Assembly: GCF_003991155.1 (NCBI RefSeq)
Contig: NZ_CP031293.1
DNA: 64,000 bases
Direction: 5' to 3' (one strand)
Source of the DNA: Escherichia coli
GTDB taxonomy: Bacteria > Pseudomonadota > Gammaproteobacteria > Enterobacterales > Enterobacteriaceae
Shown in pieces: positions 11,475 through 31,250 of this stretch. The number at the start of each line of letters is the position of its first letter. Position 1 is the first letter of the stretch. The notes under the pieces are model-generated. The model saw only the letters and a list, made by a program, of their open reading frames with translations, searched no databases and was not told the origin of the DNA. A program made the translations under genes and the position numbers.

Positions 11475-11480
11475 TTTAAA

Positions 11481-11496
11481 TGGTGCGATAATAGGA
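11481..11496. repeat. Distal att repeat: partial copy of thrW 3' end
   Basis: TGGTGCGATAATAGGA versus thrW 3' end TGGTGCCGATAATAGGAG at 31061-31078, same orientation. Confidence 0.55.
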
Positions 11497-11558: not shown

Positions 11559-11578
11559 TACCCCCAAAAGTACCCCCA
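11559..11578. repeat. Arm-type motif TACCCCCAAAAGTACCCCCA near distal att
   Basis: Near-identical copy TACCCCCATAAGTACCCCCA at 30928-30947 near the thrW-proximal att. Confidence 0.4.
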
Positions 11579-12592: not shown

Positions 12593-12712
12593 GCAAATCC
12601 TGAATAAATGCGAATCGGAAGGATAACGATACTGACGTACTCACAATTCTGTAAAGGTGAATAAAGGAAATTTGCTTAATACGCATAAGTTACATGTGGA
12701 ATAATCCCATAT

Positions 12713-13477: not shown

Positions 13478-13506
13478 TTCTGCCTCTCAGATTATATAGA
13501 TAAGCA

Positions 13507-13636: not shown

Positions 13637-13748
13637 CACAGCGATAGCTTTGTGATTGGTCCGTTATTTTCTGGCTGATATTTGAGCGTATAACAGTGTT
13701 ATACAGTGGTATACTGTATGGATATTACTCACTGATATGGTCTTTGCA

Positions 13749-14192: not shown

Positions 14193-14271
14193 ACATGAGT
14201 GCCCATTGGAAAGCTGCTTGGGCCAATACCTTTATACACCAGCAGGTGGTGACGATAGGTGAGGATTAGGC

Positions 14272-14493
14272 ATGAAAGGCAGAACGCCACACATTGAACA
14301 TCAAGCCAACCACTTCTCGGATGTTCGCAATGAGATGATTGCCATTCGCGGTGATATGCACGGCTTGGAGCGTCGAATTATTGATAAGATTGATGAAAAT
14401 AGAGATAAGGCCAGTGAAAATCAAAAGTGGATCATCGGCCTGTTGATTTTATCAATTCTTATCCCGCTACTTATCGCATTGGTCACAAAATGA
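14272..14493 (+). CDS. XhlA-like small membrane protein (coiled coil plus C-terminal TM)
   Basis: 73 aa; ..LERRIIDKIDENRDKASENQKWIIGLLILSILIPLLIALVTK matches XhlA/holin-like architecture. Confidence 0.4.
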   Translation: MKGRTPHIEHQANHFSDVRNEMIAIRGDMHGLERRIIDKIDENRDKASENQKWIIGLLILSILIPLLIALVTK

Positions 14494-15036
14494 ATATCCA
14501 ATGTGTATGCTGTCGATGCTACGCGCGCGTACTTGTCGCAAAATATCAGGCAAAGGCCAGATTCAGAAATTCGTGATAACCACCAGCACAACATGAGAGG
14601 TCATGTAACGCGATTTATCACACCAGATACATGTGATTGGTGTACCCGCATAAAACATCGTCATAGCGCGTCCTGTGCGCATATACGCCGATAATCAACA
14701 CATCACCACCACTCTGTCTCATGTAGAGAACAGTTTTATGGTACTCCCCTCCATCGTGCGCGTACTGGTCGGACGTAGTTGCAAAATTTTTTGCAACTGA
14801 TACCCCTCGCGCGCGTACTGGTCACGAAATTGGTGTTTTGCTGTGGCAGTGATATCAGAAAAATCTTCCTGTTTCACATAAAGCGGATATGCGCGTAATG
14901 TAACGGCCCCATCAACTGGGAGCGGATTTGAGCCCGAATGTGTAGGCAATGTCACTTAACGTTTGTCGCATACCTTCCAGAAAAAGCGATTCATGAATAA
15001 TAGGGGCATGAATGCCCGGCGTACCGGGCTTATTAG

Positions 15037-15735
15037 TTAATTTGGTGCTTTAGGGTCAACATTAAAAGTTATATCACCTTCTGTATTTTTCCCGGCATAG
15101 CTAGCGGCTATTCTCGCCAACCCTTTGTAATCAGCAATTCCATCAGACTGTTGCGAGACGACTGAGCTACCAACTTTCCATAACATATTAATCTGCCGAT
15201 TATTGAGATAAGCCTTGGCATCAAACGACTGGAGTATCACCCCTGCGCCGTAGAACGTGTCCGTCACAGTTGTGTTATACGCGCCAGTAATTCCATAAGT
15301 AGGCGTATAAACTGTTGTTGCCGTTCCAGTGGTATTAGCTGTACCGTAGCCACCACCATAACTATTGAACGTGGTGTTCGAGTTTCCGTACGTTGTTGCT
15401 GAGCTCACACCAGTTTGCCCGTATATTGGGATGGTTACATTACGAGTATTTGAAATGGCCCCGCTTCTCAAAAAGTTCAAGAGAATTACCTGGTCAGCCA
15501 ATTTTTCATCTTTAACTTGTGTATATCCTTGGCTTGATAAACTGGCGGCTACTACCGTAGCTATTTGAGTGTATTCAATCTGTTTGGTGTTCCAAAGTTC
15601 TTGGCTTGCGGGGATGATCAAGAACTTCTTACCGACAGATTGCCCGGAAGATAAAGCATTGACCGTTACTAACGGTTTTTGTACGCATCCAGCCAATAAT
15701 GACAGGGATAATATTAAAAGAAGATTTTTAATCAT
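15037..15735 (-). CDS. Lipoprotein, unknown function (Thr/Gly/Tyr-rich)
   Basis: Signal peptide with lipobox LLAGC; 232 aa. Confidence 0.6.
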   Translation of the reverse strand: MIKNLLLILSLSLLAGCVQKPLVTVNALSSGQSVGKKFLIIPASQELWNTKQIEYTQIATVVAASLSSQGYTQVKDEKLADQVILLNFLRSGAISNTRNVTIPIYGQTGVSSATTYGNSNTTFNSYGGGYGTANTTGTATTVYTPTYGITGAYNTTVTDTFYGAGVILQSFDAKAYLNNRQINMLWKVGSSVVSQQSDGIADYKGLARIAASYAGKNTEGDITFNVDPKAPN

Positions 15736-15885
15736 GATAATCTCACCTAAGAATTGCGTGGTTATAAATTATCATCACTGTAAGCGAATGTAAGCCACAG
15801 GCTCGTAATGTGATATGGAATTTTGATAGTTGGCTCAATATCAGTATGCCGTCCTTGGCTATTATGGTTTTGTTAGTTAGAGCGT

Positions 15886-18612
15886 CTATTCCCATTCGCT
15901 AACATCTTTCATGCCACTGAGGGTAGCTACAATCCCGGCCCTTGTCAGTTTCACGAATTCTTCAGCCCCAACGGCATCACGAATTGCTTTCATGGCAATT
16001 TTATTGGCCGAAAATCGTTTCTCTGCTGCGGCGATCGCTGCTGGTGATGCCCCTGCGCGCACTGCTTTTGTAGCTTCCTGAACGGCTTTCTCTATCGCAT
16101 ATCGACCACTTCTTGTCGCCCCAATCTTAGCCACAGCATTTCTTAGCGCGCCACCAGCAACCAAACCACTAATCGAACCAATTACACCACCGCCAAAGCC
16201 TCCAGCGATCGCACCTGACTGTTGAACTCCGTTCATAATCACGCCGACGATCTTTGGAAGGCCTGAATCGAGCGTTTTGAGAGCCTCAGTTGTTCTTCCC
16301 GTGCGCTCTACGTATCGCTGCGGTCTGGTACTGGCTTTAGCGAGTACACCGAACTCTTTCATCATTCTACCGAGATCTGGCGCATGACGACTGATGGCGT
16401 TTACATTCTGCTGGGTCATGAGCTTGGCAAAATACTGGATACCTGACTCTTCACCGATTCCTCCCTTCTCTCCCTGCGCCACAGCATGCTGAAGAATAGA
16501 TGCTATTGCAGGTTGGCGTTCTGCTTCCGGCAGCGCGGAGATAAGACGGTGAAAAGCTCCCGTTCCAGTGTTTGCGGATGCCTTAAGCGTATCGGCACCT
16601 TTTCTTACCATAGCGTCTGATGCGAGATCTCGACCAAAAACAGATTCGGCATTTTGTTTGGCGATAATGTAACTTTTAGAGAGATCGTTAGCTTTCTGCC
16701 ATTCTGTGAGGAAGTTTCCTTTTTCAGCCATGATGCGCATGTCATCAGTGATAGCTCTGCGCATTTCTCCGGCAATCCGGGCGGCATTGGCCTTACCTGC
16801 CCGGGTGTTTGCTTGTTCAGCATCAGCAAACTTAGCACGCCATGCCTTCATCCCGTCGAAGGTTATGCCGCCACCTTGGTTGTTGGCAGCCTGAAACTGT
16901 TTCATCTCCGGGCTGAGTGGAACATTGGCTGCTTTTTCTGCTTGGACGACAGCCATCCCATTACTCATTTTCATCCTTTCGCGTGGCATCGTGCTTCGCA
17001 GTTCTGCCCATGCCATATTCTCTGCTGTTTTCATATCACTGAGGCTCGCGATGATGCGCTCTTTAATTGCTGCGCTTTTTTCTGATGCGCTTCCAGACTC
17101 AGCACCGAAATCAGACAACTGCTTATTCAACTTTGAGGATATTTCATTGAAGGCCGTAAGGTGAGCATCCTGAACATTCCCAGGAGTTGATGCCAGAACA
17201 CCTTCTGCTTGGGCAATTCCACGACTACCTGAGCGCATTCCAGGCGTCAGGGTGTTGATATTAATACCAGTGATTTTCGCCGCCTTAGCGACATCATCTC
17301 TGACGTTTGATGCCTGCGATGCGATATGCTCTCGGCCTACGGCAGAACGCGCTGCTTTCGATACATCATTGGCGGTTTCCAGAGTATTTGCTGCCCCTAA
17401 CACATGGCCTGATTGATTTGTATTACTCCGCAATACATCTCGCATTACGTCACTGGCTGTCTGTCCGCTCTTTATTAAAGCGCGTGCTCCTAGCGATCCT
17501 GCTAGGCCAATACCTGTCTCTTTTGCTAGGTCTTCTGGGCTGATCTGCCCGTTCTTTTGGGCGTTCACCAATGTACCTGGCAGGTTTTCTGCCAACATAC
17601 TAGCCACCTTTGTGGCCGCACGTTCAGCACGTGGAGCGTTGGCAACTGAAGAAGCTGCGGTAGCTGCCTTTCCTGCACCTAATCCTGTAATAAGGTAAGG
17701 TGCTAGCTGCTCACCAGCCTGCGCGTATGGATCTGTAGGTTGGTCTACTGGGCGAAAGACAGGTGATATGGGCGTGTATGTGCCATCACCCACACCAAGC
17801 TTCTGAGCTGCCCATGCTCCGGCTGATTGCGCCGCATTGACTACCCCCACGCCTGCGTCCATTACATCAAACGGTATATTAGCAATCCCTCTGGCCATCT
17901 GCTCTGGCGCAGCTTTCAGTCCTGGCGAAAGATATTCCATCTCAGGATTAAGGTTAGACTTGGCTACTTGCTGCTGCGGTTCCCCGGCATTTTCATCGGC
18001 GAGAAACTGAGCTCTTTTCTGCTCCCATGAACTGGCTGTTGGTAGTCCTGCTTCTATGTTCTTAAATTGCTGACGTTTTGCTTCCCATGCAGAAATATCT
18101 CCCACCTGAGAGATTTCTTTATCAAGCTCTGAGTAGTCAGGCTGCTGAAGATTGCGATGTTGACTGGTTTGTGCAAACTGCAAGATTTCACTGTCATCAG
18201 GGATTATTCCGGCATCTGCAAATTTACTTACGTAATTAGCCGTTTCATCTGGCAGTGTAGATTTACCGTTTCTGACGGCATTAATACGAGCATAGCCAGA
18301 ATTATACCCAGCCAATGCCATACCTATATCACCAAATCGCTTCATTCCTTTATTGAGATGGTTTGCTGCGATATCCATTTGCTTTTCAAATGGCAGTGAG
18401 CGCGGATCTGTTCCACGATAACCAGCATCACTCATTACTGAGGGCATCAGTTGAGCAAATCCTCTAGCTCCTTTCGGTGACTCGGCACTTCCGTTACCAC
18501 TAGATTCATTGCCAACTAATGTTTCCATCGTCCCTGATGGGAAACCATATTTTTCATCGAGATGACGGGAATAGGCTTTCTGTTTTTCTGTCAGTTGTGC
18601 CATCATTGCCAT
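15886..18612 (-). CDS. Large Ala-rich protein with N-terminal lytic transglycosylase (SLT) motif; phage internal virion/ejection protein-like
   Basis: 908 aa; N-terminus contains ESSGNG...GFAQLMPS...AGYNSGYARI (family-1 LT ES / GLMQ / AYNxG motifs); rest is long Ala/Gly-rich. Confidence 0.6.
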   Translation of the reverse strand: MAMMAQLTEKQKAYSRHLDEKYGFPSGTMETLVGNESSGNGSAESPKGARGFAQLMPSVMSDAGYRGTDPRSLPFEKQMDIAANHLNKGMKRFGDIGMALAGYNSGYARINAVRNGKSTLPDETANYVSKFADAGIIPDDSEILQFAQTSQHRNLQQPDYSELDKEISQVGDISAWEAKRQQFKNIEAGLPTASSWEQKRAQFLADENAGEPQQQVAKSNLNPEMEYLSPGLKAAPEQMARGIANIPFDVMDAGVGVVNAAQSAGAWAAQKLGVGDGTYTPISPVFRPVDQPTDPYAQAGEQLAPYLITGLGAGKAATAASSVANAPRAERAATKVASMLAENLPGTLVNAQKNGQISPEDLAKETGIGLAGSLGARALIKSGQTASDVMRDVLRSNTNQSGHVLGAANTLETANDVSKAARSAVGREHIASQASNVRDDVAKAAKITGININTLTPGMRSGSRGIAQAEGVLASTPGNVQDAHLTAFNEISSKLNKQLSDFGAESGSASEKSAAIKERIIASLSDMKTAENMAWAELRSTMPRERMKMSNGMAVVQAEKAANVPLSPEMKQFQAANNQGGGITFDGMKAWRAKFADAEQANTRAGKANAARIAGEMRRAITDDMRIMAEKGNFLTEWQKANDLSKSYIIAKQNAESVFGRDLASDAMVRKGADTLKASANTGTGAFHRLISALPEAERQPAIASILQHAVAQGEKGGIGEESGIQYFAKLMTQQNVNAISRHAPDLGRMMKEFGVLAKASTRPQRYVERTGRTTEALKTLDSGLPKIVGVIMNGVQQSGAIAGGFGGGVIGSISGLVAGGALRNAVAKIGATRSGRYAIEKAVQEATKAVRAGASPAAIAAAEKRFSANKIAMKAIRDAVGAEEFVKLTRAGIVATLSGMKDVSEWE

Positions 18613-19922
18613 CCCTTAAGTTTTGCCTGATAGTAACTTTCCGGCAGATAGCCATGTGCGGTCACATAATCCTTAACCAGTGAAGGATCCTGCAACAGCA
18701 TTTTGGTATCAGTTTCTTCGTCCTTAGATTTGGTTACAGGAATACCGAGCCCGGCAATCTGTCGTTTCTGCATTCGAATAATTACGTCCTGCGCTTTATT
18801 CAACTCTCGCAAAAATGCCTCATTGCTGGTTGCTGACTTAATGCCATTTTGAGATTGCATAAGGGCAGCCCTTTCCCCTTCGGTTGGGTTAGAGCCAAAA
18901 GTCCCTTTGAGGCTAGGCAGAATAACCTTTAGGTTGTATTCATCAGCTTTGGCGCGTAGGCTTCGTGTGTCTTCTGCTACATCAGGAAGGAATCCAAACC
19001 CCAGCGTCAGGGGGTTATAGTTCTGCGAGCGGGTAACGGCCGAAGGATGTTTCCCTACAATTCCCGCCAGTTCATGACCCACTTCAAGCGCAGAGTTCAA
19101 GGAGTCGATGTTACCTACAACAGTATTAATTTTATCGTTCATCTTCTCCACTTTCGCCTGCTGTACCTTGCTCAGTTCAGCATTGAGCTTGTCTCTCTCG
19201 ATGTCATTTTGAGCACGTCCAAGTCGTGCTTTCAGAACCATTTCTCTCGTGCGTAGTTGGTTATCGGATAGGACTTTGAACTGCTCCATATCGAGACGTC
19301 GATTACCCTGTTCCGCATTAACCTGAGCATTATATGCGGATGTATCTGCGTTCTGCTGTGCAATGCTCTGCCCTTGCTGCTTCTCTTGAACACTAAAGTA
19401 ACTATTTGGATCAGCATGGAGGTGGATGAGGTCAGTGATTCTGTTGAATTCCTGTGGGTCATTCTGCCAAGACTGATAAACCTCTTCAGCAGGAAGACCA
19501 AATCGCTGTAATACTGGATTTGCCTGCTGAATGGCCTTCTGCATGGTCAGTGGATCTCCAGTTTGTGACGCAAGACGCAGATTCATGGCAGCGTCAGCGG
19601 TCTGTCGATTTTGCTCAGCATCAATGAATCCCATCTGTTTTTGAGAATCAGCCATAAACTGGGGATACTGGGCCATTAACTTCTGCACGCCAACACGATC
19701 ATTATTAGCTACCGCACTACCCAACCGTGCCTGATATTCTTTTAACTGCTGGGAAATTTGCGCCTGCTGATTAATCTCAGCAACGCCTCTTAGCCCCTGT
19801 AGCGCCATTAAACCTACGTTTGGCTGCTGCTGATACTGCACAGGCTGAGGAACGGAAGAACGAGGAGCATTATCATTTTGCGGTGCCATGCTAGGCAGCC
19901 CGCCAAGTTGCCATGTCGCCAT
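18603..19922 (-). CDS. Gln-rich coiled-coil protein, ejection-protein-like
   Basis: 439 aa; overlaps downstream gene start (operon). Confidence 0.45.
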   Translation of the reverse strand: MATWQLGGLPSMAPQNDNAPRSSVPQPVQYQQQPNVGLMALQGLRGVAEINQQAQISQQLKEYQARLGSAVANNDRVGVQKLMAQYPQFMADSQKQMGFIDAEQNRQTADAAMNLRLASQTGDPLTMQKAIQQANPVLQRFGLPAEEVYQSWQNDPQEFNRITDLIHLHADPNSYFSVQEKQQGQSIAQQNADTSAYNAQVNAEQGNRRLDMEQFKVLSDNQLRTREMVLKARLGRAQNDIERDKLNAELSKVQQAKVEKMNDKINTVVGNIDSLNSALEVGHELAGIVGKHPSAVTRSQNYNPLTLGFGFLPDVAEDTRSLRAKADEYNLKVILPSLKGTFGSNPTEGERAALMQSQNGIKSATSNEAFLRELNKAQDVIIRMQKRQIAGLGIPVTKSKDEETDTKMLLQDPSLVKDYVTAHGYLPESYYQAKLKGWQ

Positions 19923-20599
19923 TAGAATCCAAGCCCCCCAACAAGACCAATAAGCCCACCACCAATAGCGCCGGCCGCAGTTCCTATTCCAGGAACAACG
20001 GAACCAAGTTGCGCACCCGCTAAAGCGCCTGATGCTGCCCCACCAATACCACGCGCAAGACTGGATGGCTGCTGCGCCTGACCTGCACGAATAGCGCCAA
20101 GCCCCTGCAAGAGTTGTCCGGTATTATTGGCGTAGTTTTGCCCTGCCGTTGCCTGCCCTGATGCCGCATTCATCCCGACATTTAGCAGGTTTCCATAATT
20201 TTGCATTTGCCCACTAAGCCAATTGTTATAAAGCATGGGCGCAATGGAAGATAACTGGTTACTGGTAGCTGTTGAGCCAAGCCCCCCGGTAGCTTCTGCT
20301 GAGACAAGGTTCTGATAACGGGCCTGATCTGCCTGTGTTTTATATAAACCAGAACCAAAGAAATCATTCGCGGCTTTATTCTGCCCTTCCAGAGTCATCA
20401 GTCCTTGCAGTTGTTGTAAAGCAGGCAATCCGACTTCTGCATACGGCTTGAGATTATTCATCACCGTATTCCACTGCTCGCGCTGCAAATCAATTGCCTG
20501 CTGCTGGGCCTTCGCCTGAGCTTTAGAGGCACCACCATCACCGCCTTTTTCGTATACGGCACGATTGAGATGTTTATGAGCTATATGGGTAATTAACAT
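19922..20599 (-). CDS. Gly/Ala-rich protein with hydrophobic C-terminus, ejection-protein-like
   Basis: 225 aa; C-terminal GxxxG-rich hydrophobic segment; contiguous with neighbours. Confidence 0.45.
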   Translation of the reverse strand: MLITHIAHKHLNRAVYEKGGDGGASKAQAKAQQQAIDLQREQWNTVMNNLKPYAEVGLPALQQLQGLMTLEGQNKAANDFFGSGLYKTQADQARYQNLVSAEATGGLGSTATSNQLSSIAPMLYNNWLSGQMQNYGNLLNVGMNAASGQATAGQNYANNTGQLLQGLGAIRAGQAQQPSSLARGIGGAASGALAGAQLGSVVPGIGTAAGAIGGGLIGLVGGLGF

Positions 20600-21054
20600 T
20601 CGCTGAATTCCTTATATTGTTGCCGAGTTAACTGATAAAGCGTTACGCCGACGGGTTTACCACATCTGATATAAGCATCATCAAGGTGACCAACACGGGT
20701 AGCGCCAAGCAAACGGATAATTGCCCGTCCATATTTTGTGGTGTCAGGAACCATAGTGATGCTGTTAAGGAATGGTGAGTTTTCGAGAAGCCATTTGCAG
20801 AATAATCGATGCCCTTGCAGTGCATATTCACCACGGAATCCGGGGTCGTACACCGCATGGCATTCAACAACGCTATGCCAGAAGTTACGCACTTCATGAA
20901 CGCCAGCCAGCACTAATCCTTCGTAGATGCCGAGATATACCGCATCAGGCTTGATGTAGTACGTGTGCCCCGGCTCAACAATATTTTCGGTATTGCCTGG
21001 CTCGTTAAGAAAGGCCTGTAATCGCACAGGGTTATCAATAAATTTTAGTTCCAT
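20593..21054 (-). CDS. Hypothetical protein (153 aa), first large gene of the module
   Basis: ORF-track; overlaps next gene start. Confidence 0.4.
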   Translation of the reverse strand: MELKFIDNPVRLQAFLNEPGNTENIVEPGHTYYIKPDAVYLGIYEGLVLAGVHEVRNFWHSVVECHAVYDPGFRGEYALQGHRLFCKWLLENSPFLNSITMVPDTTKYGRAIIRLLGATRVGHLDDAYIRCGKPVGVTLYQLTRQQYKEFSEC

Positions 21055-21070
21055 GCGATGCCATCCATTT

Positions 21071-21232
21071 TCACATACAGCCTGCCAGCGCCTTATCTAT
21101 TAACCCTCGTGCAATTTCATGCAGAGTTGGCGCTACTCCAATTCCTGATTTTTTACGCTGCTCTTCCTGAATTTTCTTTATCGCTTCCATTTGCTTCTCA
21201 CTTATCAATACCGGCTTTACTGAAATAGCCAT
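21071..21232 (-). CDS. Small RHH-like protein (about 53 aa)
   Basis: Internal start MAISVKPVLISEKQMEAIKKIQEE... within the 96-aa track ORF; beta-strand plus two helices pattern. Confidence 0.3.
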   Translation of the reverse strand: MAISVKPVLISEKQMEAIKKIQEEQRKKSGIGVAPTLHEIARGLIDKALAGCM

Positions 21233-21685
21233 AACGCCCCCCTTAGAACTGTATAAAACAACAGTTATTATAGTTTCACAAATCGCAATATTCATCATCG
21301 TAATTGCAAAATATGAAACAAATAGCACAAAAAAATGCCACCGCTCAGTAGCTGGTGGCATCGTTCTGTGTGTCAGGTTTTGACAGGTTTTTTATGGACT
21401 CTAAAAACTATATTTATGGTATCGCATTACTCTTCACGGCAGGTGCTTTTCAGTTCTGCCCTTGCTTCTGGCTCCATTGGTAATTTGATTCGCGATCAGC
21501 TATGCGGATGGTTTGCTGAACAGGCATAACAACTTCTCAGAGGCTGTTTTTTGAACTACGAAAATTTCGTAGTGCTCACTTTCAAAAACGTCACGCCCTT
21601 GTACACAGGATTTTACGAAAGTCTCGTAAAACACTCTCTGATGCCAGCCAGGTGTTGTGCGCATCAATTCAGTCACATTGTGTCG

Positions 21686-21799
21686 GTTCAAAATACCGTG
21701 TTGTTGGTTCAGTGTTGGTTCAATAAAAAGAATAAAATCCTTATAAAACAATACACTTTACAAATTGAACCAACTGAACCAACTGAACCAACACCTTTT
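21686..21799. repeat. Iteron cluster B (TGAACCAAC repeats), right inverted repeat
   Basis: Three tandem 9-mers at 21762-21793; degenerate copies at 21686-21722; immediately 3' of the primase gene. Confidence 0.65.
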
Positions 21800-21817
21800 C
21801 TACGCACATGAAGAAGC

Positions 21818-24577
21818 TCATTCTTCAGATGAGTTATAATCTCCTGGCTGGTAATTGAGTACATAAACGTTTATTTGTCGTCCCTGAATACGTGGTGATT
21901 TTCTTTGGTATCCACGACCGCTGTTTGGTGGGGTTAGCATCCCGGCTTTTTTCAACACTTCAGCAAACTGTTTTGCGTTGAAACCACATGCGATCTCCTT
22001 TTCAAATGTGGCCGGGAATGTGTAGAAAATCATTGGGCTTTCGTCATGTTCTCCACGCTGACGGTATCCGGCTAAATCTTTGATGGGCAAATCTGCCGGG
22101 CTGTATGGAAATGGTGCAAAACGGCTAAGCCCATAGGCATTAAGAAATGCCTCCGTTTGTTCAATAATCTGCTGATGCTCTTTGTTACCTGTGCCGAACT
22201 CGCGCAACCATGCGTTATAGCTGTGCTGTATCGCATCACGGCATGTCTGAGCATCCCAGCCTGTTACAACCTCGCCTAACAACAATGCGGCCTCCAGAAT
22301 GGCAAATCGCGCGGCTACACGGTGAACCTGCTCACCATAATCGGATGGGATCAGGCTTCTCCATCTGCTTTCGCAATCACGAACGGTTTTAATAGCCTGT
22401 TGCTGGTGGTGTGCCAGCCATTTAATCCACTCACGCCCGGACGCGCCGTGGTGATGCTGGTAAGCGTCTTTCAGTGCGTCTGCGTGCTGTTTTCCGTTCT
22501 GGTAATCGTGAAAGCGTACTGCTTTACTCAACGGAATATTCAGCAGTCGCACCAGTTGCCCGGCTTTGGTTTTTCGCCCGGAAGTAGCGATAAATGTTTC
22601 TAAATCCATTTCTCCGGTGCTGATTGCCACTGTACGCCAGCGTTTTAGATCCCGGTTTCCACCATCTTTAGCGCCTTGCAGTTTCCCTACACCGTTAAAT
22701 AACGCATAGGCAGACTGTGAAACGCTGACAGGATCAGCGCCCTGACCAACTTCATCAAGCGGCATTAGTCCGTCATTGTGGGCGGCGGCCTCATTTGCCA
22801 GCCCCAGCGCGGTTCCGTACCACGTCAGCCGCAGTAAATCAGGGTTGCCGTATAAGCTGCTCGCCACGTTTGCCGTGGTGGTCTTACCTGCGCTCGACTG
22901 CTCATAGAAATGAATGCCGAACCCGTCAGCGCCCACCAGCCCAATCAATGGCGCTGCCAGTGCTGCGCCGATCCCGGTCATCATTGAATAGTTACCAAAG
23001 GCCAGACGCGCCACGTTATCACGCCAGCTTTTCGCGCTCCCTGAGACGGTATATCCGGCTGCGGCTGAGCTTCTCCCGCTGAACAGCACAGGATTTTCAG
23101 GTGTTCCGATGATTTCCCCATCAGGCATGATGTACGCTCCGCATTGCCAGCCAGTGGCATGAGCAACACGCCACAATTCACGAGAGCCACTGCGTTGTAG
23201 CCAGTCTGCCAGTATTGCTCTGAGGCTGCTTTTGGTCGTGACATTTACCCCACCAGCTTTAAGTGTGCGCCATCCTTCACGTTCACCAATATCAGCCAGT
23301 GGAATGGCAGCGGTTGTCGGCGTTTCAGAACCAAACGACAGCCAGCGAAGAATGAGATACTGGTCTTTATCGTCTCTGCCAGTACCGATAACGCTTAACG
23401 GAGAACATAACCAGCTTTCGTTATTGATGATTTCTCCACTCTGGCTGTCAGCTCTCGGAGATACCCAATAAATACCATCCTCGCGGCTTTCTATTCTTGG
23501 TTTCAGTGGGTCGGTATCCATAACCTTAAAATCGCTTCCCTCAATGGTCTGTGGCTCCTGTTTCACGCCATTACCCTGTGGTTGGTACATTGACTTATTG
23601 AACGCTTCTGTGGCGCATTTAATGCCGTGTTTTTGGTGGTAATCATTCCAGTCTGCTTTGTGATCTGTCGGGGGTAATGCCACCCATCCAGAAACAGATA
23701 AAGCTGCTTTTTCTGCTGCTATTCTCCCCGTGTTTTGTCTTCCTTCGCTGTGGTCGTTATCCGCAGCAATGATGATTTGTGCTGAAGGAAATTTATCCCG
23801 CAGTACCTGGGCGACATATAACAGGTTCCCGGCATCAATCGCCGCCACTGTCAGCGCCTCTGGACGAATTAAATGGGCAGATAATGCCGTTGCCAGACCT
23901 TCTGCGATTAAGATGCTCTGTGTTGTTTCTGGTGCGTTTATGGCGTGATATGCCCCCCGCTTTGCTGAACCTGTCAGGAGTCTTTTTTCACCATGTGAGG
24001 TAATAGTCTGTGCTGCTGTGACTGCGCCGGATTTATCCACCAGCGCCAGCAACAGAGATCCATCGGGCAACACGGGGAATGTAAAATCACCTACCCCTTT
24101 CGCAACCAGATAATCAGATTTGCCGTTTACAGCCTTTCTGCGCATGTCATCAAACTGACGGGAAAACGTATCCCGTCTTTGTTGTTCGTCCTTCTCTGCC
24201 CTTTTCAGGCGCTCCTGTTCGCGTCGCTGGCGCTCGGTTTCCAGTTGTTCCCGTTTCTGGCTGGTGGCTTCTGGTGTTTCCGTTGTCCGGTAATCAATAC
24301 CCAGAACATCAGCGGCAAGAAGCGCCGCCTCTGTTGTGTCGCAGTTATTTACGCGTTTAATTAAATCCAGCCCATCACCAGCGCCGCACTGATTACAGAT
24401 GAAGCTACCGCGCCCGTTGTCATCGAACCGGAATCGATCTTTGCCCCCACATGCAGGGCAGGGAGCATGACGGCGCGGAGAGTCAGGGACATTTATGTTC
24501 AGGCAGCCCAGCACATGAGGCCAGTTGTTTTCAGACGCACTGATAACCTGACGGATAAGATCAATGTTTCGCATCAC
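21818..24577 (-). CDS. P4 alpha-like primase-helicase (zinc finger + toprim + P-loop NTPase)
   Basis: 919 aa; CPACGG..CNQCG zinc-binding motif, toprim-like IIIAADNDH, Walker A SSAGKTTT and Walker B LMPLDEV. Confidence 0.8.
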   Translation of the reverse strand: MMRNIDLIRQVISASENNWPHVLGCLNINVPDSPRRHAPCPACGGKDRFRFDDNGRGSFICNQCGAGDGLDLIKRVNNCDTTEAALLAADVLGIDYRTTETPEATSQKREQLETERQRREQERLKRAEKDEQQRRDTFSRQFDDMRRKAVNGKSDYLVAKGVGDFTFPVLPDGSLLLALVDKSGAVTAAQTITSHGEKRLLTGSAKRGAYHAINAPETTQSILIAEGLATALSAHLIRPEALTVAAIDAGNLLYVAQVLRDKFPSAQIIIAADNDHSEGRQNTGRIAAEKAALSVSGWVALPPTDHKADWNDYHQKHGIKCATEAFNKSMYQPQGNGVKQEPQTIEGSDFKVMDTDPLKPRIESREDGIYWVSPRADSQSGEIINNESWLCSPLSVIGTGRDDKDQYLILRWLSFGSETPTTAAIPLADIGEREGWRTLKAGGVNVTTKSSLRAILADWLQRSGSRELWRVAHATGWQCGAYIMPDGEIIGTPENPVLFSGRSSAAAGYTVSGSAKSWRDNVARLAFGNYSMMTGIGAALAAPLIGLVGADGFGIHFYEQSSAGKTTTANVASSLYGNPDLLRLTWYGTALGLANEAAAHNDGLMPLDEVGQGADPVSVSQSAYALFNGVGKLQGAKDGGNRDLKRWRTVAISTGEMDLETFIATSGRKTKAGQLVRLLNIPLSKAVRFHDYQNGKQHADALKDAYQHHHGASGREWIKWLAHHQQQAIKTVRDCESRWRSLIPSDYGEQVHRVAARFAILEAALLLGEVVTGWDAQTCRDAIQHSYNAWLREFGTGNKEHQQIIEQTEAFLNAYGLSRFAPFPYSPADLPIKDLAGYRQRGEHDESPMIFYTFPATFEKEIACGFNAKQFAEVLKKAGMLTPPNSGRGYQRKSPRIQGRQINVYVLNYQPGDYNSSEE

Positions 24578-24932
24578 CGTACCCCACGTGGTCTATAGCG
24601 TTTGCGATATGGCTAACCAGCATCTGCCACTTGGTTATTCCGTAATCAGTCAGCATGCCATCATTGTTTAGCCACATATCAAATTCAGCGGTTGTCGCAA
24701 GTTTCCACTTATCGCCGTGGACAGTCCTCATTGCTGGGTACATGAATGCGCAAATCAGATCACAAACATCTGACGGCTTCAGAGATGTAGTAATGGTGCG
24801 TCCCTCTGGCGTCTGAATTGCCATTTTCTCTTCACCAGTAGAATGAAGGTTATGAATCCACACAGCACCAGCAATCTTTGCCACCTGCTCTCCGATTGCG
24901 GAGCTAAGCGCCATTTCTGCATTTTCACGCAT
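24561..24932 (-). CDS. Hypothetical protein (123 aa)
   Basis: ORF-track; overlapping stops/starts with neighbours. Confidence 0.35.
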   Translation of the reverse strand: MRENAEMALSSAIGEQVAKIAGAVWIHNLHSTGEEKMAIQTPEGRTITTSLKPSDVCDLICAFMYPAMRTVHGDKWKLATTAEFDMWLNNDGMLTDYGITKWQMLVSHIANAIDHVGYGDAKH

Positions 24933-25266
24933 GAGAACCTCCCGCTACAGTTGCGCCCATGTCATTAACCATGCTTTGCCATATCTCACGCCCGACGTCA
25001 GTCAATCCGTCCTTAGTGACGCAACGTTCAAGAAGCTCGATCCCCACGGTTTCCCACTGCGGGTAGAACACTTTCATGGCTGCCAGTGTGTAGCTATCGA
25101 TCAGGCTGCGAACGCCTTTTACTCCATTGACGATTTCCACACGGACGGCCTCGCCGTCCGCATCAACCATGAAATAGTCCCCGCCGCTGGTGGAGGTAAT
25201 GTGGTTATACAGTGCCGACGCATACTTATTTGCCAGCGCATTCAGTCGGAAATTTTTAGTAATCAT
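24925..25266 (-). CDS. Hypothetical protein (113 aa)
   Basis: ORF-track. Confidence 0.35.
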   Translation of the reverse strand: MITKNFRLNALANKYASALYNHITSTSGGDYFMVDADGEAVRVEIVNGVKGVRSLIDSYTLAAMKVFYPQWETVGIELLERCVTKDGLTDVGREIWQSMVNDMGATVAGGSHA

Positions 25267-25276
25267 GGCTCCATCC

Positions 25277-25879
25277 TCAGTGCGTCACTGGTTCCGCTGG
25301 CATGCCGTTTTCATTCAGTTCAGCTATAAAGCTGTTGTGAAGTTCAGCAAGCGTTTCACGCCCAAATGGAGTCAGTGCTCCTTGTTCCACATCCATCATG
25401 GCTCTGTAGAAAATAATGGCGCGTTCTGTGCCAGACTCGATGCCAAAACGTTCTATCATCGCGCCCTCAATGTTGTTTGCCATAGCGAGGCGCTCTGCTA
25501 CTGGATACAGCGGCATGGCGACGATGCCGTTGGAATAAACAGCCACTTCGGAAGGATTGCCAGTATCATCAATGATGCTGACAGTGCCGTTTTCCTCTCT
25601 CATTTCCAGCATGAATACTGTTGCGATCAGCCATCTCCACATAATGACGTTATGCTGTGATGTGTAATCGAAATATCCCTGGTTACCGCCATCGGCAATA
25701 GCGAGATGTATTGACATACCTTCATCTGGTTTATCGTCATAATCCCCGGCATCCAGACGATTTACGGCATCAATATATGAGATGGCCTCAACGCGTTCTG
25801 TCATGCCATCGTTGCTGCGGTACATGATGTTTACGCCGTCAGGCGTTGCTTCTGCATGGAAAGTTAAGAAATTATTCAT
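25277..25879 (-). CDS. Hypothetical protein (about 200 aa)
   Basis: ORF-track frame 25277..25984; likely start at internal Met (MNNFLTFHAE...). Confidence 0.35.
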   Translation of the reverse strand: MNNFLTFHAEATPDGVNIMYRSNDGMTERVEAISYIDAVNRLDAGDYDDKPDEGMSIHLAIADGGNQGYFDYTSQHNVIMWRWLIATVFMLEMREENGTVSIIDDTGNPSEVAVYSNGIVAMPLYPVAERLAMANNIEGAMIERFGIESGTERAIIFYRAMMDVEQGALTPFGRETLAELHNSFIAELNENGMPAEPVTH

Positions 25880-26093
25880 GTTTCGCCTCGCCTGAATGAT
25901 TCTGTAACTCATATTTGCCCAACAATTCGTCCGCTTCCTGAATAGCTTCTGGTACGCCATTGAGCAGTGACATAACCGCGCCAATCATTAACTTGTCTCT
26001 GTTGCTGGGGCTGGCCCCTTCAAGCCAGAACCCTAAAACAGTCTGAACCTGTTCGATGCGACATTGCGCTTCAATGAGCTGGATGTTGGTCAT
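25872..26093 (-). CDS. Hypothetical small protein (73 aa)
   Basis: ORF-track; 4-nt overlap with upstream gene. Confidence 0.3.
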   Translation of the reverse strand: MTNIQLIEAQCRIEQVQTVLGFWLEGASPSNRDKLMIGAVMSLLNGVPEAIQEADELLGKYELQNHSGEAKHE

Positions 26094-26353
26094 TTCGCAC
26101 TCTCCACATCGATTAAACCGATATCTATCAGGGAGGTAACTTTTTGTAGCCAGCTATTGATTACTGTCGCCTGTTCCCCTCCCACCGAGGGAACAATCTC
26201 ATTCATCACATGAACCAGACCTGTGCGCGCTCTGGTAAGCCGTTCAGTCGCGCAATCTGCGGGAGTGAATGTGTCTGGATATGGCTCTTCACGCCCCAGC
26301 AATGATTCAATTTCCAGCTCACACGGATGACGATAAATTAAGTTGATATTCAT
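26090..26353 (-). CDS. Hypothetical small protein (87 aa)
   Basis: ORF-track; ATGA-type overlaps. Confidence 0.3.
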   Translation of the reverse strand: MNINLIYRHPCELEIESLLGREEPYPDTFTPADCATERLTRARTGLVHVMNEIVPSVGGEQATVINSWLQKVTSLIDIGLIDVESAK

Positions 26354-26544
26354 TTTTCACCCCCAAGAATTACCAGCTCGGCACGGGCATCGTTAACCAA
26401 AGATGAGCACGCTTTAATCGCATCCACGACATCAGCAGCGTCCATTTCTTCAGCCGAAAGACTGACAGCAACCAGGACAGCCGCTGCTTGCTCGATTAAT
26501 TGAAGTGCGGACGTAAGTCGAGGGGCATTAATTGAGTTATTCAT
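26350..26544 (-). CDS. Hypothetical small protein (about 64 aa)
   Basis: Internal start [10 protein letters not shown]... in track ORF 26350..26601. Confidence 0.3.
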   Translation of the reverse strand: MNNSINAPRLTSALQLIEQAAAVLVAVSLSAEEMDAADVVDAIKACSSLVNDARAELVILGGEK

Positions 26545-27604
26545 TGGTTGCCCCCGTTTTTCCTGGCATTTCGCCACCTTCCAGCAGGAAATGAACGTCA
26601 CGAACGGCGAGATCCAATATCGCGAGTAACGCCTTCAGTCTTTCGTCTCGTGAGGGAGAGTTGCTCACCAGAATGTCGTTAATCACTTCTGTCAGTGTGA
26701 TGATCTGGCTTGTGCGTTCGAGGGGATCCATATGCACATCGTAGGTTTTAATCATGAGCCACCTCCATGCGGATACGACCAGCAAAAAAGCAGACGTGAT
26801 CGCGCACCAGAGAACGGCGAGCATCGCGTTCAGACTCGGCAGCAATATGATGAATTTTGGCGGTAATTGTCGAGCAATCGCGGCGAACTGCGGCGATAAT
26901 CCAGATAAATTGCGGTTTTTGGGTAGGGGTAGTAGCCAGCATGTGGCAGCCTCCATTCGATAGCATGTAACGCTACCACCGGAAACGCCAATTTCGCTGG
27001 TGGTAGCCCAGACAGGGTTGGCGTAACCGGCTCGAATGGATACCGGCGCTTCCGAAGAAGCCCCTGCCTGAGCCACCATTGATTGACAAAGGCGCTGGAT
27101 TATACACCAACGCCCAAAAAATGGGTGAGTCAGACCTACGACATAAAAAAAGACGCTCGGCGCGTCATATGTCGCCATTCGATTTACTAGGACGCCAATC
27201 CCGGCACCCGTTTTATGAGGTGCCTTATAACCATAAACCGTGTTGCCGCATAACGGCAAGCTCTTTTTTATGGACTCCGAAAACTCGCTATTGGAAGCAC
27301 CAGATGCACAGTACATCGCGCTCATTTCGTTAACGTCACGCGCGTGGACGAATGTTTTTGTGGAGTCACTACACGAGCGGAAGACATCATCTACGACCAG
27401 AAATTTTCTGGCGCAGCCGCTGACCTTCTCAATGCTAATATCATCGCCCGAGATTTCTGATATGGTTAAGGCATCCGTTCCGACCACCAGCAAATGATAA
27501 ACTTTGCTTGTATCTGCTGTATTAATGCCTGACTTTGCCGTCATATTGCTGGATTTTGGCGACATACCAGCCAGTGAAAATGTCTTCTTCTGGACGGTTA
27601 GCAT
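26537..27604 (-). CDS. Long open frame of uncertain gene structure (possibly a 72-aa gene 26537..26755 plus upstream gene)
   Basis: 355 codons without stop; composition atypical in middle part; start overlaps stop of upstream gene. Confidence 0.25.
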
Positions 27605-27780
27605 TTGTTAACCTCCGCGAACTCCTTCATGAAACGCGCCAGCGGTTGTACGCATGGCGATTGATACCCGTCGCGATAAAACGTCACTCGGTTGTGAGAC
27701 ACGCTTTCGACAGTAACGAGTGCTCCGTGGGCATCTTTGTAGCGTTTTTGTGGTTGTGGTGTTCCTGTTGGCTTAGACAT
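27598..27780 (-). CDS. Hypothetical small protein (about 60 aa)
   Basis: Internal start MSKPTGTPQPQKRYKD... with GGAGGTG Shine-Dalgarno upstream. Confidence 0.3.
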   Translation of the reverse strand: MSKPTGTPQPQKRYKDAHGALVTVESVSHNRVTFYRDGYQSPCVQPLARFMKEFAEVNKC

Positions 27781-28606
27781 TGACCACCTCCAGACGCTTG
27801 GCGAGCCAGCGTTGCGACAGGCGGGTGAGTTCTCCTTTGCGCTGCTCATATTCCATGCCCATATCAATTAACGTGATATTGGTGCTTTCGAGATATGAGA
27901 GGTGCTCAAGCTGTTCTGCGTTCATATGGTCGCGAGGTTCGCCAGAATAGCCATTTATCCGCGCCCACTGCTTAGCAGTTAGCCCACCAAGAACGATACG
28001 AGAAATCATATTGCTCTCGTTTGTGTAGTGGTGTTGCTGCGTCGTTTTACCCATCTCGGCACGGGCCATATTCAGCGCATCGCACATTGGCTTAAAGTTG
28101 TTTGCGGCACTGAGACGGGCTTTTAGCTGGCGACGATAGCGGGCGGCGATTTCAGGCACGCTACGCTGTAATTCTTCCTCGCACTGGATGAAATAACGGC
28201 GGATAGCGCGACCCTGATCATTGCGTTCGATCATTGCCAGTTCTTTCGCCATTCCGACACTTAACAGATAGTCTTTGCCGGGTCTGCCAGAGTGCTTTAT
28301 CTTGCTGTAAGCCGCGCCATTCGGGCTTTTCCCCAAATTTGGGGAAATTGTTTTATGGACTGAGTAATCGTGCCCAATGGTGAAGTCATATTCAGAGATG
28401 CGATCAGTGATCCATGTAGAGAAGTCTTTTCCCACGCCCAACGCTTTGTGTAACGCTTTTGCGCTAACAATATTGGTTTCACGCCCACCGATATGACCAG
28501 GAATAACCGGGACAATTGCGGCAAATTCATTACCGTTAATTGTGCTCAGAGAGGCGTTCAGATGAGGGGCGGCCTCAGAAATTAATCTGCTTTTTTCGAT
28601 GTTCAT
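27773..28606 (-). CDS. Phage antirepressor-like protein (AntA/KilAC-type)
   Basis: 277 aa; N-terminus ..INGNEFAAIVPV.. and ..DYLLSVGMAKELAMIERNDQGRAIRRYFIQCEEE.. resemble antirepressor domains. Confidence 0.5.
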   Translation of the reverse strand: MNIEKSRLISEAAPHLNASLSTINGNEFAAIVPVIPGHIGGRETNIVSAKALHKALGVGKDFSTWITDRISEYDFTIGHDYSVHKTISPNLGKSPNGAAYSKIKHSGRPGKDYLLSVGMAKELAMIERNDQGRAIRRYFIQCEEELQRSVPEIAARYRRQLKARLSAANNFKPMCDALNMARAEMGKTTQQHHYTNESNMISRIVLGGLTAKQWARINGYSGEPRDHMNAEQLEHLSYLESTNITLIDMGMEYEQRKGELTRLSQRWLAKRLEVVNV

Positions 28607-28618
28607 TTTCAGTCTCCG

Positions 28619-29050
28619 TTAGGCGGCGTTAAACGCGTCCGGGTAGAGTTTCAGAATGTCGGCAATTTCCTGCTGAGAAAGTCCGTTGTGATCATTTATG
28701 TTCGCAAGATGGTTAATATGAGTGATCACTTTCAGAACATCACCACGGCAGGAGAAACGGTAGCGAAGGTGTGTTCCGATACCATCAGGATTCTTTTCGT
28801 CGATACGCTCCAGAGTGATTCCAAGCTGGCGTTCTAACTCTGTTGCATAGTTACGACCAGAAGACAGACGGCAGTAGCGAAGAATGTCATTTTCTGTCCA
28901 TCCCTCTATACCAGTACGCAGCATATAGACTCTGGCACGATGCTTTTTCGGTGTGCGCTTTGGTGCTTGAAGGGATTTTGTAAGGGGCGTAACATCAGAT
29001 ACACGAATATCTGAATTAGCCGCCTGTAATGGGCGGTTTTTCTTTTCCAT
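28619..29050 (-). CDS. Hypothetical protein (143 aa)
   Basis: ORF-track; immediately downstream of alpA. Confidence 0.35.
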   Translation of the reverse strand: MEKKNRPLQAANSDIRVSDVTPLTKSLQAPKRTPKKHRARVYMLRTGIEGWTENDILRYCRLSSGRNYATELERQLGITLERIDEKNPDGIGTHLRYRFSCRGDVLKVITHINHLANINDHNGLSQQEIADILKLYPDAFNAA

Positions 29051-29253
29051 CAGGCCACCTCGTCTCTAGATTCTAATATACACTTCTCAATCCATTCATC
29101 TATTTCAGACTCAACAAAAGCAATTGCCCGACTTCCAATTTTTACCTGTTTAGGGAACCTCCCCTGACTAATAAGACGATAAATCCATGCTTTGCTATAA
29201 CCAGTTCGCCTTTGAACTTCAGAGAGACGAATTAATGAATTGTAATTAGCCAT
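29050..29253 (-). CDS. alpA: AlpA-family transcriptional regulator/excisionase-like
   Basis: 67 aa MANYNSLIRLSEVQRRTGYSKAWIYRLISQGRFPKQVKIGSRAIAFVESEIDEWI; classic AlpA HTH. Confidence 0.75.
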   Translation of the reverse strand: MANYNSLIRLSEVQRRTGYSKAWIYRLISQGRFPKQVKIGSRAIAFVESEIDEWIEKCILESRDEVA

Positions 29254-29680
29254 TTATTAATATCCTGTACTAATGACGCAATAACCCCCTCCTGCAACGA
29301 ATGGCGAGAGTTTTATTTGCGTCAAATGTCGAATACGCCAAAGACCACAATATGAAAAACATATTGCGGTCTTTTATAAAAGATAGTCAGATTGTTTTGG
29401 TTTGTTTGCTCCACAAGGGTAGAGCTACCCTGCATTTCGGCAGGATCACGCTATTAGGCGTGACATCCAGTAGTTTTAAAGAACAATTGCGCTTTGTCAG
29501 CGCCAAAGCCTGTTAAAGAACATTCCGCTTTTCAGCAGCGTAGAAGGCTCAATACACCTTCGTTTATAAAAGAGCGATTGCCCTTCTCCAGGGCTAACTG
29601 TTAAATAGCAATCCTCTGTGAGTTTTTATCAATCTACTCCCCTATACTTTAGTAAACCTCTGTATACTTGTCCAGTTGTT

Positions 29681-30895
29681 TCATGCGTGTTTTTCAAACA
29701 CCATATGCACCACATTTCCGCCATGCTCGAGAGAATCCATATAGTCGGCATACCATTGAAGCATCTCCCGCCGTCCATCCAGATATTGCGCATGGTTGTA
29801 TGTGCCACGAATTGAGTTCTTATCAACGTGAGCGAGCTGCGTTTCTATCCACGCGGTGTTATAGCCCTGCTCATGCAAAATCGTGCTCATAGTGTGTCGG
29901 AACCCATGACCAGTTACACGTCCAGCGTAGCCAATGCGCTTAAACACTTGGTTTATGCTGGCCTCACTCATTGTTTTCCTTGGATCATTGCGCCCGGGAA
30001 ACATAAGAGGGTAATTGCCTGTTATTTCTCTAATCTTCCCAATAAGCGAAAGAGCCTGCTCAGACAATGGCACAATATGAGGCCGCCGCATTTTCATACG
30101 TGAAGCGGGTATCTCCCATATAGCCTTGTTGAAATCAATTTCATCCCATAATGCGCCACGTAGTTCGCCAGTTCGCAAGCCGGTGATAATCAGTAGACGA
30201 GCCGCCATAACAACCAATGCGCTTCCTGAGTAACTGGACAATGCCTTGAAAAAATCAGGTAATTCTTTGGTCGTAAGGAAAGGGTAATGATTAGATTCAT
30301 GGCCTTGCATCGCGCTAGTAAGGTCTGGTGCAGGGTTATACTCTGCGCGACCAGTGACTATTGCATAGCGGAAAACTTCCCCGCACCGCTGCCTCACTTT
30401 TTTGGCTTTTTCTGTCGCACCGCGCCCCTCGATGCGCCGCAGCACATTCAGAAGTTCAAGTGGTTTGATTTCGGCGATTGGTTTTTTGCCAATGTAAGGG
30501 AACACATCTTTGTTGAAGGCTTCGAGGATGTCTGAAGCATAACCAGCAGACCATTTTTTTAATTTGCTGCTGTGCCACTCAAGGGCAATATCTTTGAAGG
30601 TGTTGTTTAACTGCGTTTCCCGGGCAATCTTTTCCTCTCGTTTCGCTTCCATCGGATCGATACCACCAGCGATACCTCTTTTCGCATCTTCACGTTTTGC
30701 CCGAGCATCGGCTAGAGTAACCTCAGGATACACACCTAGTGCCAATAGCTTCTCTTTACCAGCTACACGATATTTAAGTCGCCAGTATTTACCTCCATTA
30801 GGTTTTACCAAGAGATACAAACCGCCACCATCGGCCAGCTTGTAAGCCTTCTCTTTTGGCTTGGCTGTGTCTATTTGACGGGCATTGAGTTTCAC
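29681..30895 (-). CDS. P4-type tyrosine integrase, thrW-adjacent
   Basis: 404 aa; N-terminal arm-binding domain (..KLADGGGLYLLVKPNGGKYWRLKYR..) and catalytic HGFRHT...Y motifs; adjacent to tRNA. Confidence 0.85.
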   Translation of the reverse strand: MKLNARQIDTAKPKEKAYKLADGGGLYLLVKPNGGKYWRLKYRVAGKEKLLALGVYPEVTLADARAKREDAKRGIAGGIDPMEAKREEKIARETQLNNTFKDIALEWHSSKLKKWSAGYASDILEAFNKDVFPYIGKKPIAEIKPLELLNVLRRIEGRGATEKAKKVRQRCGEVFRYAIVTGRAEYNPAPDLTSAMQGHESNHYPFLTTKELPDFFKALSSYSGSALVVMAARLLIITGLRTGELRGALWDEIDFNKAIWEIPASRMKMRRPHIVPLSEQALSLIGKIREITGNYPLMFPGRNDPRKTMSEASINQVFKRIGYAGRVTGHGFRHTMSTILHEQGYNTAWIETQLAHVDKNSIRGTYNHAQYLDGRREMLQWYADYMDSLEHGGNVVHMVFEKHA

Positions 30896-30965
30896 TTGGG
30901 GGTACCTCCACTAAACCGAACAGCAAATACCCCCATAAGTACCCCCATCTGACCGTAGATTTTGA

Positions 30966-31043
30966 GGGACTTTAGTAGACGTCAAAAGACGAACGGGGCT
31001 TTAATACGCGGATTATAAGGGGTTTTGAAAGACTTTAGTAGAC
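30966..31043. promoter_or_regulatory. attL arm region with direct repeats GACTTTAGTAGAC x2
   Basis: Copies at 30967-30980 and 31031-31043 between integrase start and thrW; putative arm-type binding sites. Confidence 0.4.
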
Positions 31044-31060
31044 TTGGGGAGATGTTTGAA

Positions 31061-31136
31061 TGGTGCCGATAATAGGAGTCGAACCTACGACCTTCGCATT
31101 ACGAATGCGCTGCTCTACCAACTGAGCTATATCGGC
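31061..31136 (-). tRNA. thrW: tRNA-Thr (anticodon CGU)
   Basis: Reverse complement GCCGATATAGCTCAGTTGGTAGAGCAGCGCATTCGTAATGCG...GGTTCGACTCCTATTATCGGCACCA. Confidence 0.9.
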
Positions 31137-31250
31137 CCTGAAAGGACATATTCACGAACGTGAATCACGGTGGACAAGGTTAAAACTAACCGGGCGATGC
31201 GTCAATGGCCTTGTGAATCAAATGGCTACTTTTGCATCACCCGGTTTTAT

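Follow-up and report, generated by a model that had tools for sequence, protein, structure and literature searches.

Organization of the thrW locus

The DNA analysed here, called the window throughout, is a stretch of 64,000 nt from Escherichia coli (contig NZ_CP031293.1). It contains a gene for a tyrosine integrase (int) next to the tRNA gene thrW, a gene for a small AlpA/Vis-family protein as the next gene after int, two copies of a core sequence and several short repeats close to these (Table 1). The start of int lies 166 nt from the 3' end of thrW, and its product matches the Pfam families PF13356 (E 1e-28), PF22022 and PF00589. The N-terminal domain of the integrase (Int; residues 1-100) aligned to PDB entry 3JU0 with an E value of 2e-27, and Foldseek also matched 3JTZ and 3RMP. 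In the structural model, which reached a pLDDT of 90.9, strands are predicted at residues 18-23, 26-30, 36-44 and 47-56. AlpA homologues were found downstream of int in about 47 related loci, and the Vis excisionase of satellite phage P4 matches at E 3e-10. A search of Rfam returned thrW only, together with a spurious antisense match.

Table 1. Features of the attachment-site region and their positions in the window.
Feature	Position	Strand	Remarks
Distal core copy, AATGGTG-CGATAATAGGA	11479..11496	.	one C missing; left island boundary
Distal (P'-arm) doublet, TACCCCCA AAAG TACCCCCA = TACCCCCAAAAGTACCCCCA	11559..11578	+	78 nt from TGGTG of distal core; P4 homologue 4151-4174
alpA, AlpA/Vis-family small HTH protein, 67 aa	29050..29253	-	candidate recombination directionality factor (RDF); PF05930, E 7e-20
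int, P4-type tyrosine integrase, 404 aa	29681..30895	-	GTG start; Arm-DNA-bind_3, Phage_int_M, Phage_integrase
Third arm-type copy, inverted TACCCCCA	30897..30904	-	between Shine-Dalgarno GGAGG and GTG of int; P4 homologue 3915-3926
Int-proximal (P-arm) doublet, TACCCCCA TAAG TACCCCCA = TACCCCCATAAGTACCCCCA	30928..30947	+	12-nt period; P4 homologue 3942-3965
Box I, candidate AlpA/Vis-type RDF site	30955..30980	-	GTCTAC 30975-80, degenerate GTCCCT 30965-70, ATCTAC 30955-60; holds first GACTTTAGTAGAC
Box II, candidate AlpA/Vis-type RDF site	31028..31043	-	GTCTAC 31038-43, GTCTTT 31028-33; holds second GACTTTAGTAGAC; 15 nt from core
tRNA-proximal core copy, AATGGTGCCGATAATAGGA	31059..31077	.	last 17 nt of thrW plus 2 nt
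thrW, tRNA-Thr (CGT)	31061..31136	-	integration target; proA to its right

The cargo of the island (11698-29253) includes an antA/antB antirepressor, ash and a TOPRIM/DUF927 primase (21818-24577), as well as a block at 15886-21054 with annotations for a DUF2824 protein, a DNA transfer protein, a phage DNA ejection protein and a lytic transglycosylase of 908 aa. PerC, a SocA-domain antitoxin and a pRiA4b ORF-3 family gene are further members. No capsid or tail genes were found within 11698-29253, and the island resembles a phage satellite equipped with ejection proteins of its own. The cargo varies between relatives: strain EC476 has an Abi gene, and an IMG/VR contig differs too.

Arm-type repeats at both ends of the island

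An earlier note on this DNA, made from the sequence alone, had described TACCCCCA(T/A)AAGTACCCCCA near both ends of a proposed island, and we found this element at 30928-30947 and 11559-11578. The unit TACCCCCA occurs six times in the 64-kb window, against 1.1 expected, and none of 100 shuffles reached six. The copies start at 11559, 11571, 30928 and 30940 on the plus strand and at 17842, and the inverted copy occupies 30897-30904 on the minus strand. The copy at 17842 is solitary, lies within an ORF and is at chance level. Allowing up to three mismatches, the 20-mer doublet matched at the two island ends only, with 0.01 matches expected in the 64-kb window. Both doublets lie inside the island, the distal one 62 nt from the left core copy and the int-proximal one 111 nt from the right copy. 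The four arm copies listed in the earlier note thus hold, but the total is five, as the inverted copy at 30897-30904 had been missed.

A further sequence, TACCACCA at window position 30661 (plus strand), differs from the arm motif by one mismatch and is situated about 234 nt into int; it is probably a chance match. The sixth arm repeat of P4 is found about 290 nt into its int gene, so that the near-match at 30661 is in a roughly equivalent place, and the int gene of the window has no arm copy matching P4 3621-32.

Boundaries of the integrated element

Two kinds of locus define the ends of the island, which measures about 19.58 kb (11497-31058 plus one core). In strain 536 the site is empty: the left flank directly abuts an intact thrW, and homology to the window ends at 11496. 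In the viral contig IMGVR_UViG_2617270975_000009 (L102), of which the stored piece ends at 12,097 nt, the sequence from window position 11475 onward is fused to that from 31077 downward via one core copy. Both the empty site and this joined attP, GTTTGAATGGTGCCGATAATAGGAACAATAC, have the same core sequence as AATGGTGCCGATAATAGGA. A stretch of 330 nt in the viral contig comprises the int start, the inverted copy, the doublet, two 13-mer repeats treated below, the core and the distal doublet. This junction is the attP expected from recombination between the cores and should reflect real circular or tandem molecules, since assemblers typically work with words longer than the 19-nt core repeat. 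The empty site and the joined attP place recombination exactly at the core and confirm the island boundaries that the earlier note had proposed. The element occupies the 3' end of a tRNA gene and is flanked by two copies of a short core.

Among 5,426 complete genomes, 711 have a near-identical int-thrW junction. In the window, the reading frame of int is intact, and alpA and the five arm sites are all present; the C missing from the distal core could nevertheless impair excision of this copy.

The distal core without one C (GTG-CG), as compared to thrW, is common to all six E. coli chromosomes examined, which cover three distal-arm families. The full GCCG is present in the empty site and in the joined attP (9688-9710 of the viral contig), and another IMG/VR contig (L107, 9470-9490) has a larger deletion of 5 nt at the same core position. 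Such recurrent small core deletions might mark the cleavage or overlap region, or 'lock' islands in place.

To the left of the island, positions 11300-11450 (plus strand) encode a C-terminal fragment of a lambda-type integrase (…LEMVRRYAHLSVRH) that faces the distal core and is a pseudogene according to the RefSeq annotation of relatives. Strain 536 has a full-length lambda-type integrase gene of 1155 nt, which ends beside the intact thrW. These observations suggest that successive elements have used thrW and that the left flank of the island is itself old mobile DNA.

Remnants at thrW were seen in E. coli PBP5 (L005) and E. coli MS1657 (L006), where int is cut to about 330 nt; in MS1657 another integrase is inserted at the same core. 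The doublet of both remnants has decayed, with one repeat unit deleted and the other mutated, and their hexamer boxes are still recognisable.

Conservation of the repeat layout

A scan with one genome per species yielded 80 loci with Int identities of 48-98%, mostly from Enterobacterales and with several tRNA targets. Together with the window, P4 and three E. coli variants, 85 loci were compared. The doublet is found at -51 to -53 from the int start in most of them, and all three int-proximal copies are recognisable, at fixed positions, in 70 of the 85. The motif itself falls into classes, namely TACCCCC, TGCCCCC, GG/AGCCCCC and the quite different CTATACA, which switch repeatedly across the loci. 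Despite these switches, the copies within a locus agree: one class is shared by all three int-proximal copies in 67 of the 70 loci. Doublet and inverted copy are of the same class in 69 of the 70, whereas 10,000 shuffles gave 26 on average and at most 42; since the loci are related by descent, this comparison overstates the significance.

Within E. coli, thrW-linked integrases keep the layout at nucleotide identities of 92%, 83.5% and 68%. The most distant of these relatives, strain 675SK2 (68%), has TGCCCCC as the motif of its three int-proximal copies, and AAATGCCCCCTTTTATGCCCCCACC is present 81 nt from the distal core copy, at the other end of its island of about 50 kb. The variant of the motif therefore changes in both arms, with TGCCCCC in 675SK2 and P4 and TACCCCC in the window. 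The distal arms comprise three families, in which the spacers between core and doublet have diverged at the same length and similarity stops right after the doublet, leaving the doublet as the sole conserved block. In strain EC476, whose Int is identical to that of the window at 403 of 405 positions and whose int-side arm is identical, the distal arm belongs to a different family; nevertheless, the doublet is kept at the same distance from the core. The earlier note had named absence of the motifs from relatives with the same integrase as the observation that would speak against arm sites, and the opposite is seen in EC476, as well as in the 70 of 85 loci that retain three int-proximal copies.

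The loci with CTATACA (L062, L063, L066, L068, L069, L072, L073, L077, L080, L083, L084, L086 and L091) have TGTATAG-N5-TGTATAG upstream of int and an inverted CTATACA at the start codon, with unchanged positions. This subgroup keeps RTCTAY hexamers and a window-like AlpA.

At the selC (tRNA-Sec) locus of E. coli JNEC-KY171 (L008), a P4-like integrase is preceded by several (T/C)ACCCCC copies. Spacing and copy number differ there, with copies about 115 nt apart and a longer leader, and the arm plan therefore varies between subfamilies.

The arm motif follows the N-terminal domain of the integrase

We compared the arm classes with the sequences of the integrases, whereby the truncated Int of one locus (L065) was left unscored and P4 Int was aligned allowing an insertion of two amino acids. 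Residue 50 is leucine in every TACCCCC locus and arginine in every TGCCCCC locus with a readable Int; the Int proteins of P4 and of HPI also have arginine at this position. Lysine is found in the GG/AGCCCCC loci; in the CTATACA class, 11 of the 12 loci where the residue can be read have methionine. Residues 29 (L versus E/Q) and 53 (L/I/V versus F) switch with the arm class as well, and all of these class-linked residues are located in predicted beta-strands.

Mosaic integrases separate the N-domain from the remainder of the protein. Outside the N-domain, two of them (L027 and L095) have 83% identity with the Int of the window, but inside it only 63-64%, and they belong to the TGCCCCC class. 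Conversely, several integrases with 62-66% identity outside and 71-76% inside the N-domain use TACCCCC. Because these domain-mosaic integrases carry the motif class of their N-domain, the arm motif follows the N-domain of Int. One may tentatively go further and propose a specificity code, in which residue 50 (L/R/K/M) together with residues 29 and 53 sets the motif that is used and natural N-domain swaps re-target the integrases, although we consider this extension somewhat less likely to be right than wrong.

13-mer repeats and hexamer boxes between int and thrW

The region between the int start (GTG, 30895) and thrW holds, besides the int-proximal doublet, two 13-mers. The duplicated motif that the earlier note had placed here corresponds to GACTTTAGTAGAC, which is present as exact copies at 30968-30980 and 31031-31043. 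A further match within int (29645), with two mismatches, does not exceed chance expectation. On the int strand, GACTTTAGTAGAC reads GTCTAC-TAAA-GTC, and the 13-mer is a fragment of hexamer arrays with a phase of 10 nt. In 82 distinct regions upstream of int, we counted 2.45 hexamers of the form RTC(T/C)AY per locus within 138 nt, whereas the background is 0.19, which is a 13-fold enrichment. Its positions peak at -148/-138 and at -85/-75/-65 and thus form two arrays, and direct repeats at a 10-nt phase are the usual pattern of RDF sites (PMC7498355).

The type of the hexamer differs between loci, being TCTAY in the window, TCAAY in 675SK2 and four further loci (L029-32) and TCCR in P4. In about 42 loci, a window-like AlpA (at least 78 bits) is accompanied by TCTAY, irrespective of the arm class (TA, CA or CTATACA). 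The four loci L029-32 encode a distinct AlpA (25 bits) together with TCAAY, even though their integrases are closer to that of the window than those of many TCTAY loci. One exception, L092, combines an AlpA of the L029 type with TCTAY hexamers. This link between hexamer and AlpA relates to about 47 loci, as many loci are without an AlpA gene within 3 kb. In P4, Vis reportedly protects two boxes between int and the core. Since the hexamer type tends to follow the neighbouring AlpA/Vis-type gene, boxes I and II are probably excisionase sites of the AlpA/Vis type, a prediction that we hold with moderate confidence. Binding of Vis to the attP region of P4 has been described (PMC2603039). The two types of motif are therefore probably recognised by different proteins, TACCCCCA by Int and the 13-mers by AlpA.

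A rather unlikely alternative is that the boxes, that is GACTTTAGTAGAC and the RTCTAY hexamers, are bound by Int or by a host factor such as IHF or Fis, or that they are elements of the int promoter instead of RDF sites. Box I overlaps the family-conserved TTGAAATC, which resembles a -35 element, and the regulatory region of P4 reportedly contains a high-affinity IHF site (PMC7286903). The best match to the IHF consensus WATCAANNNNTTR is a weak one with two mismatches between the boxes (31002-31014), where the background is 1.7 such matches per 165 nt, and across the family this consensus showed no clear enrichment. The L092 locus, which breaks the AlpA/hexamer rule, would also fit this explanation. 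Against Int as the ligand, the hexamer type is independent of arm class and identity of Int: the integrases of L029-32 are 71-75% identical to that of the window and yet go with TCAAY, whereas integrases at 61-67% identity with a window-like AlpA carry TCTAY. Host-factor sites, in turn, would not switch together with a protein encoded by the element, and the 10-nt-phased direct repeats are those typical of RDFs.

Proposed function of the attachment region

We interpret the region as the attachment-site apparatus of an integrative element of the P4 type, about 19.6 kb long and inserted in the 3' end of thrW, with a probability of roughly 0.85. The proposal of the earlier note that the repeats are integrase arm or RDF sites gains support from the P4 record, which annotates the homologous elements as attP arm repeats. 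According to this model, Int would act as a heterobivalent integrase. Its C-terminal domains would work on the 19-nt core (31059-31077 / 11479-11496), and its N-terminal domain, a predicted four-stranded beta-sheet, would bind the TACCCCCA sites, which form a pair in each arm plus the inverted copy at its own ribosome-binding site. By bridging arm and core sites, Int would assemble the intasome that carries out integration (attP x thrW) and excision. The AlpA/Vis-type protein on boxes I and II may bend the int-side arm, direct excision and dampen int expression.

Int bound to the doublet and to the inverted copy around the 5' end of its gene probably represses int, as in P4, where both Int and Vis repress the int promoter (PMC7286903), and AlpA on box I may repress int as well. 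Because a sigma-70 consensus scan of 30850-31140 detected no promoter, this autoregulation model draws on homology to P4. There, TTGAAA-18-CATAAT can be recognised by eye, with the -10 element inside the doublet, and the equivalent in the window is poor. In KplE1, arm and RDF sites overlap the int promoter, which leads to autoregulation (PMC2951348).

We regard it as improbable that the int-proximal copies mainly serve to form an RNA or DNA hairpin, in which the inverted copy and the second copy of the doublet are base-paired and make the ribosome-binding site of int inaccessible, so that the changes between classes would be compensatory. Such a hairpin is predicted at -26.7 kcal/mol with the Shine-Dalgarno sequence in its loop or stem, the inverted copies co-vary in 69 of 70 loci, and P4 int is reportedly also regulated post-transcriptionally. 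The z-score of the fold, -1.72 with 7 of 200 shuffles folding as well, is modest, however, and complementarity drops to near the random level within about 3 nt outside the motif. In addition, a hairpin leaves unexplained the tandem duplication, the co-varying distal doublet 19 kb away and the link to residue 50 of Int; it could exist as an additional layer of control.

The idea that the repeats arose by chance, or that they are remnants of duplication or low-complexity sequence without a function, can practically be dismissed: the extra TACCCCCA at 17842 and the 13-mer with two mismatches at 29645 do occur at chance level, but the 20-mer is expected 0.01 times and seen twice, once per island end, and the positions are conserved over dozens of genera while the flanks diverge.

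Replication iterons were considered separately and ruled out, given that P4 annotates its ori repeats separately and that the motif tracks the N-domain of Int.

Comparison with P4 and other integration systems

The attP of P4 goes back to Pierson and Kahn (1987), as cited in PMC7286903. The P4 record NC_001609 lists six 'attP arm sequence repeat' features: an inverted copy over the int start, the pair ATGCCCCCAATTATGCCCCCAA, the pair ATGCCCCCTTTTGTGCCCCCAC and one copy inside int, with a 20-nt core between the two pairs. Window and P4 share the order of int, inverted repeat, doublet with a 12-nt period, two boxes, tRNA core and second doublet, with distances that agree within 1-3 nt. With the family-conserved int start as reference, window and P4 both have the inverted copy at +2; the doublet follows at +33/+45 and +31/+43, and the tRNA end TGGTGCC at +166 and +164, respectively. 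The distal doublet follows 78 nt from the core in the window and 76 nt in P4, and in the P4-type layout the tRNA core comes about 113 nt beyond the int-proximal doublet. The domain architecture of the integrase and the AlpA/Vis-family gene are common to both as well.

In contrast, P4 combines TGCCCCC with R50 where the window has TACCCCC with L50 (an A for G at motif position 2), it targets leuX instead of thrW, and its hexamers are of the RTCCR and not of the RTCTAY type. The cargo is unrelated: the window lacks sid, psu and delta and has ejection-protein genes of the podovirus type instead. Thus, while the attP plan of P4 has been known since 1987, the TACCCCC/L50 variant, the thrW target and the unrelated cargo are specific to the island described here.

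In P4 (L016, 3914-3926), int is annotated to start 12 nt ahead of the ATG that corresponds to the MKLNARQ start, which all relatives conserve, and the inverted arm repeat is located between the two ATGs. P4 Int may be translated from two start codons, which fits a repeat in this position.

The arm-binding domains of HPI (3JTZ), HAI7 (3JU0) and 3RMP are 50-59% identical to the N-domain of the window Int and superimpose on its model with an rmsd of 0.6-1.0 Å. The int locus of HPI displays the same layout of doublet and inverted copy, in the form of TGGTGGTCA/TGGGGTCA and TGACCCCCA, but its motif is TGACCCC(C). Entry 3RMP bears the title 'Structural basis for the recognition of attP substrates by P4-like integrases'. 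Among our results, only the class-switching code may be new, and 3RMP may already cover some of it. A literature text search for the motif strings returned primer noise only, and one with keywords for P4-like arm sites gave nothing specific.

Heterobivalent bridging of arm and core sites, along with direct RDF repeats near the core, is also known from lambda (P1, P2 and P'1-3, with Xis, IHF and Fis) and from IntS/TorI of KplE1. The sequences of the arm motifs as well as number and orientation of the sites differ in both, and the P' sites of KplE1 share TAAA. In lambda and in phages of the IntS type, attP is downstream of int and C5 doublets are lacking. The same holds for Dewey and phiEt88 (49% identity), the best phage matches listed by tblastn, which are of the IntS type with the order xis-int-attP and have no C5 doublets. 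The motif is therefore specific to a P4-like subgroup and not a property of all DUF4102 integrases.

Implications for P4-type islands

These results define, in functional terms, where a common thrW island of E. coli begins and ends. They also provide a sequence rule by which attL and attR of P4-type islands can be annotated: an inverted copy is expected where int starts, a first doublet near -52 and another some 78 nt past the core. The co-variation of residue 50 with the arm motif offers a cheap, testable handle on which islands may employ one another's integrases. If the specificity code is true, meaning that it reflects direct contacts and has not already been described, the arm specificity of P4-type integrases would be predictable and could be re-engineered from sequence, and cross-talk between the many islands of one genome would be predictable as well.
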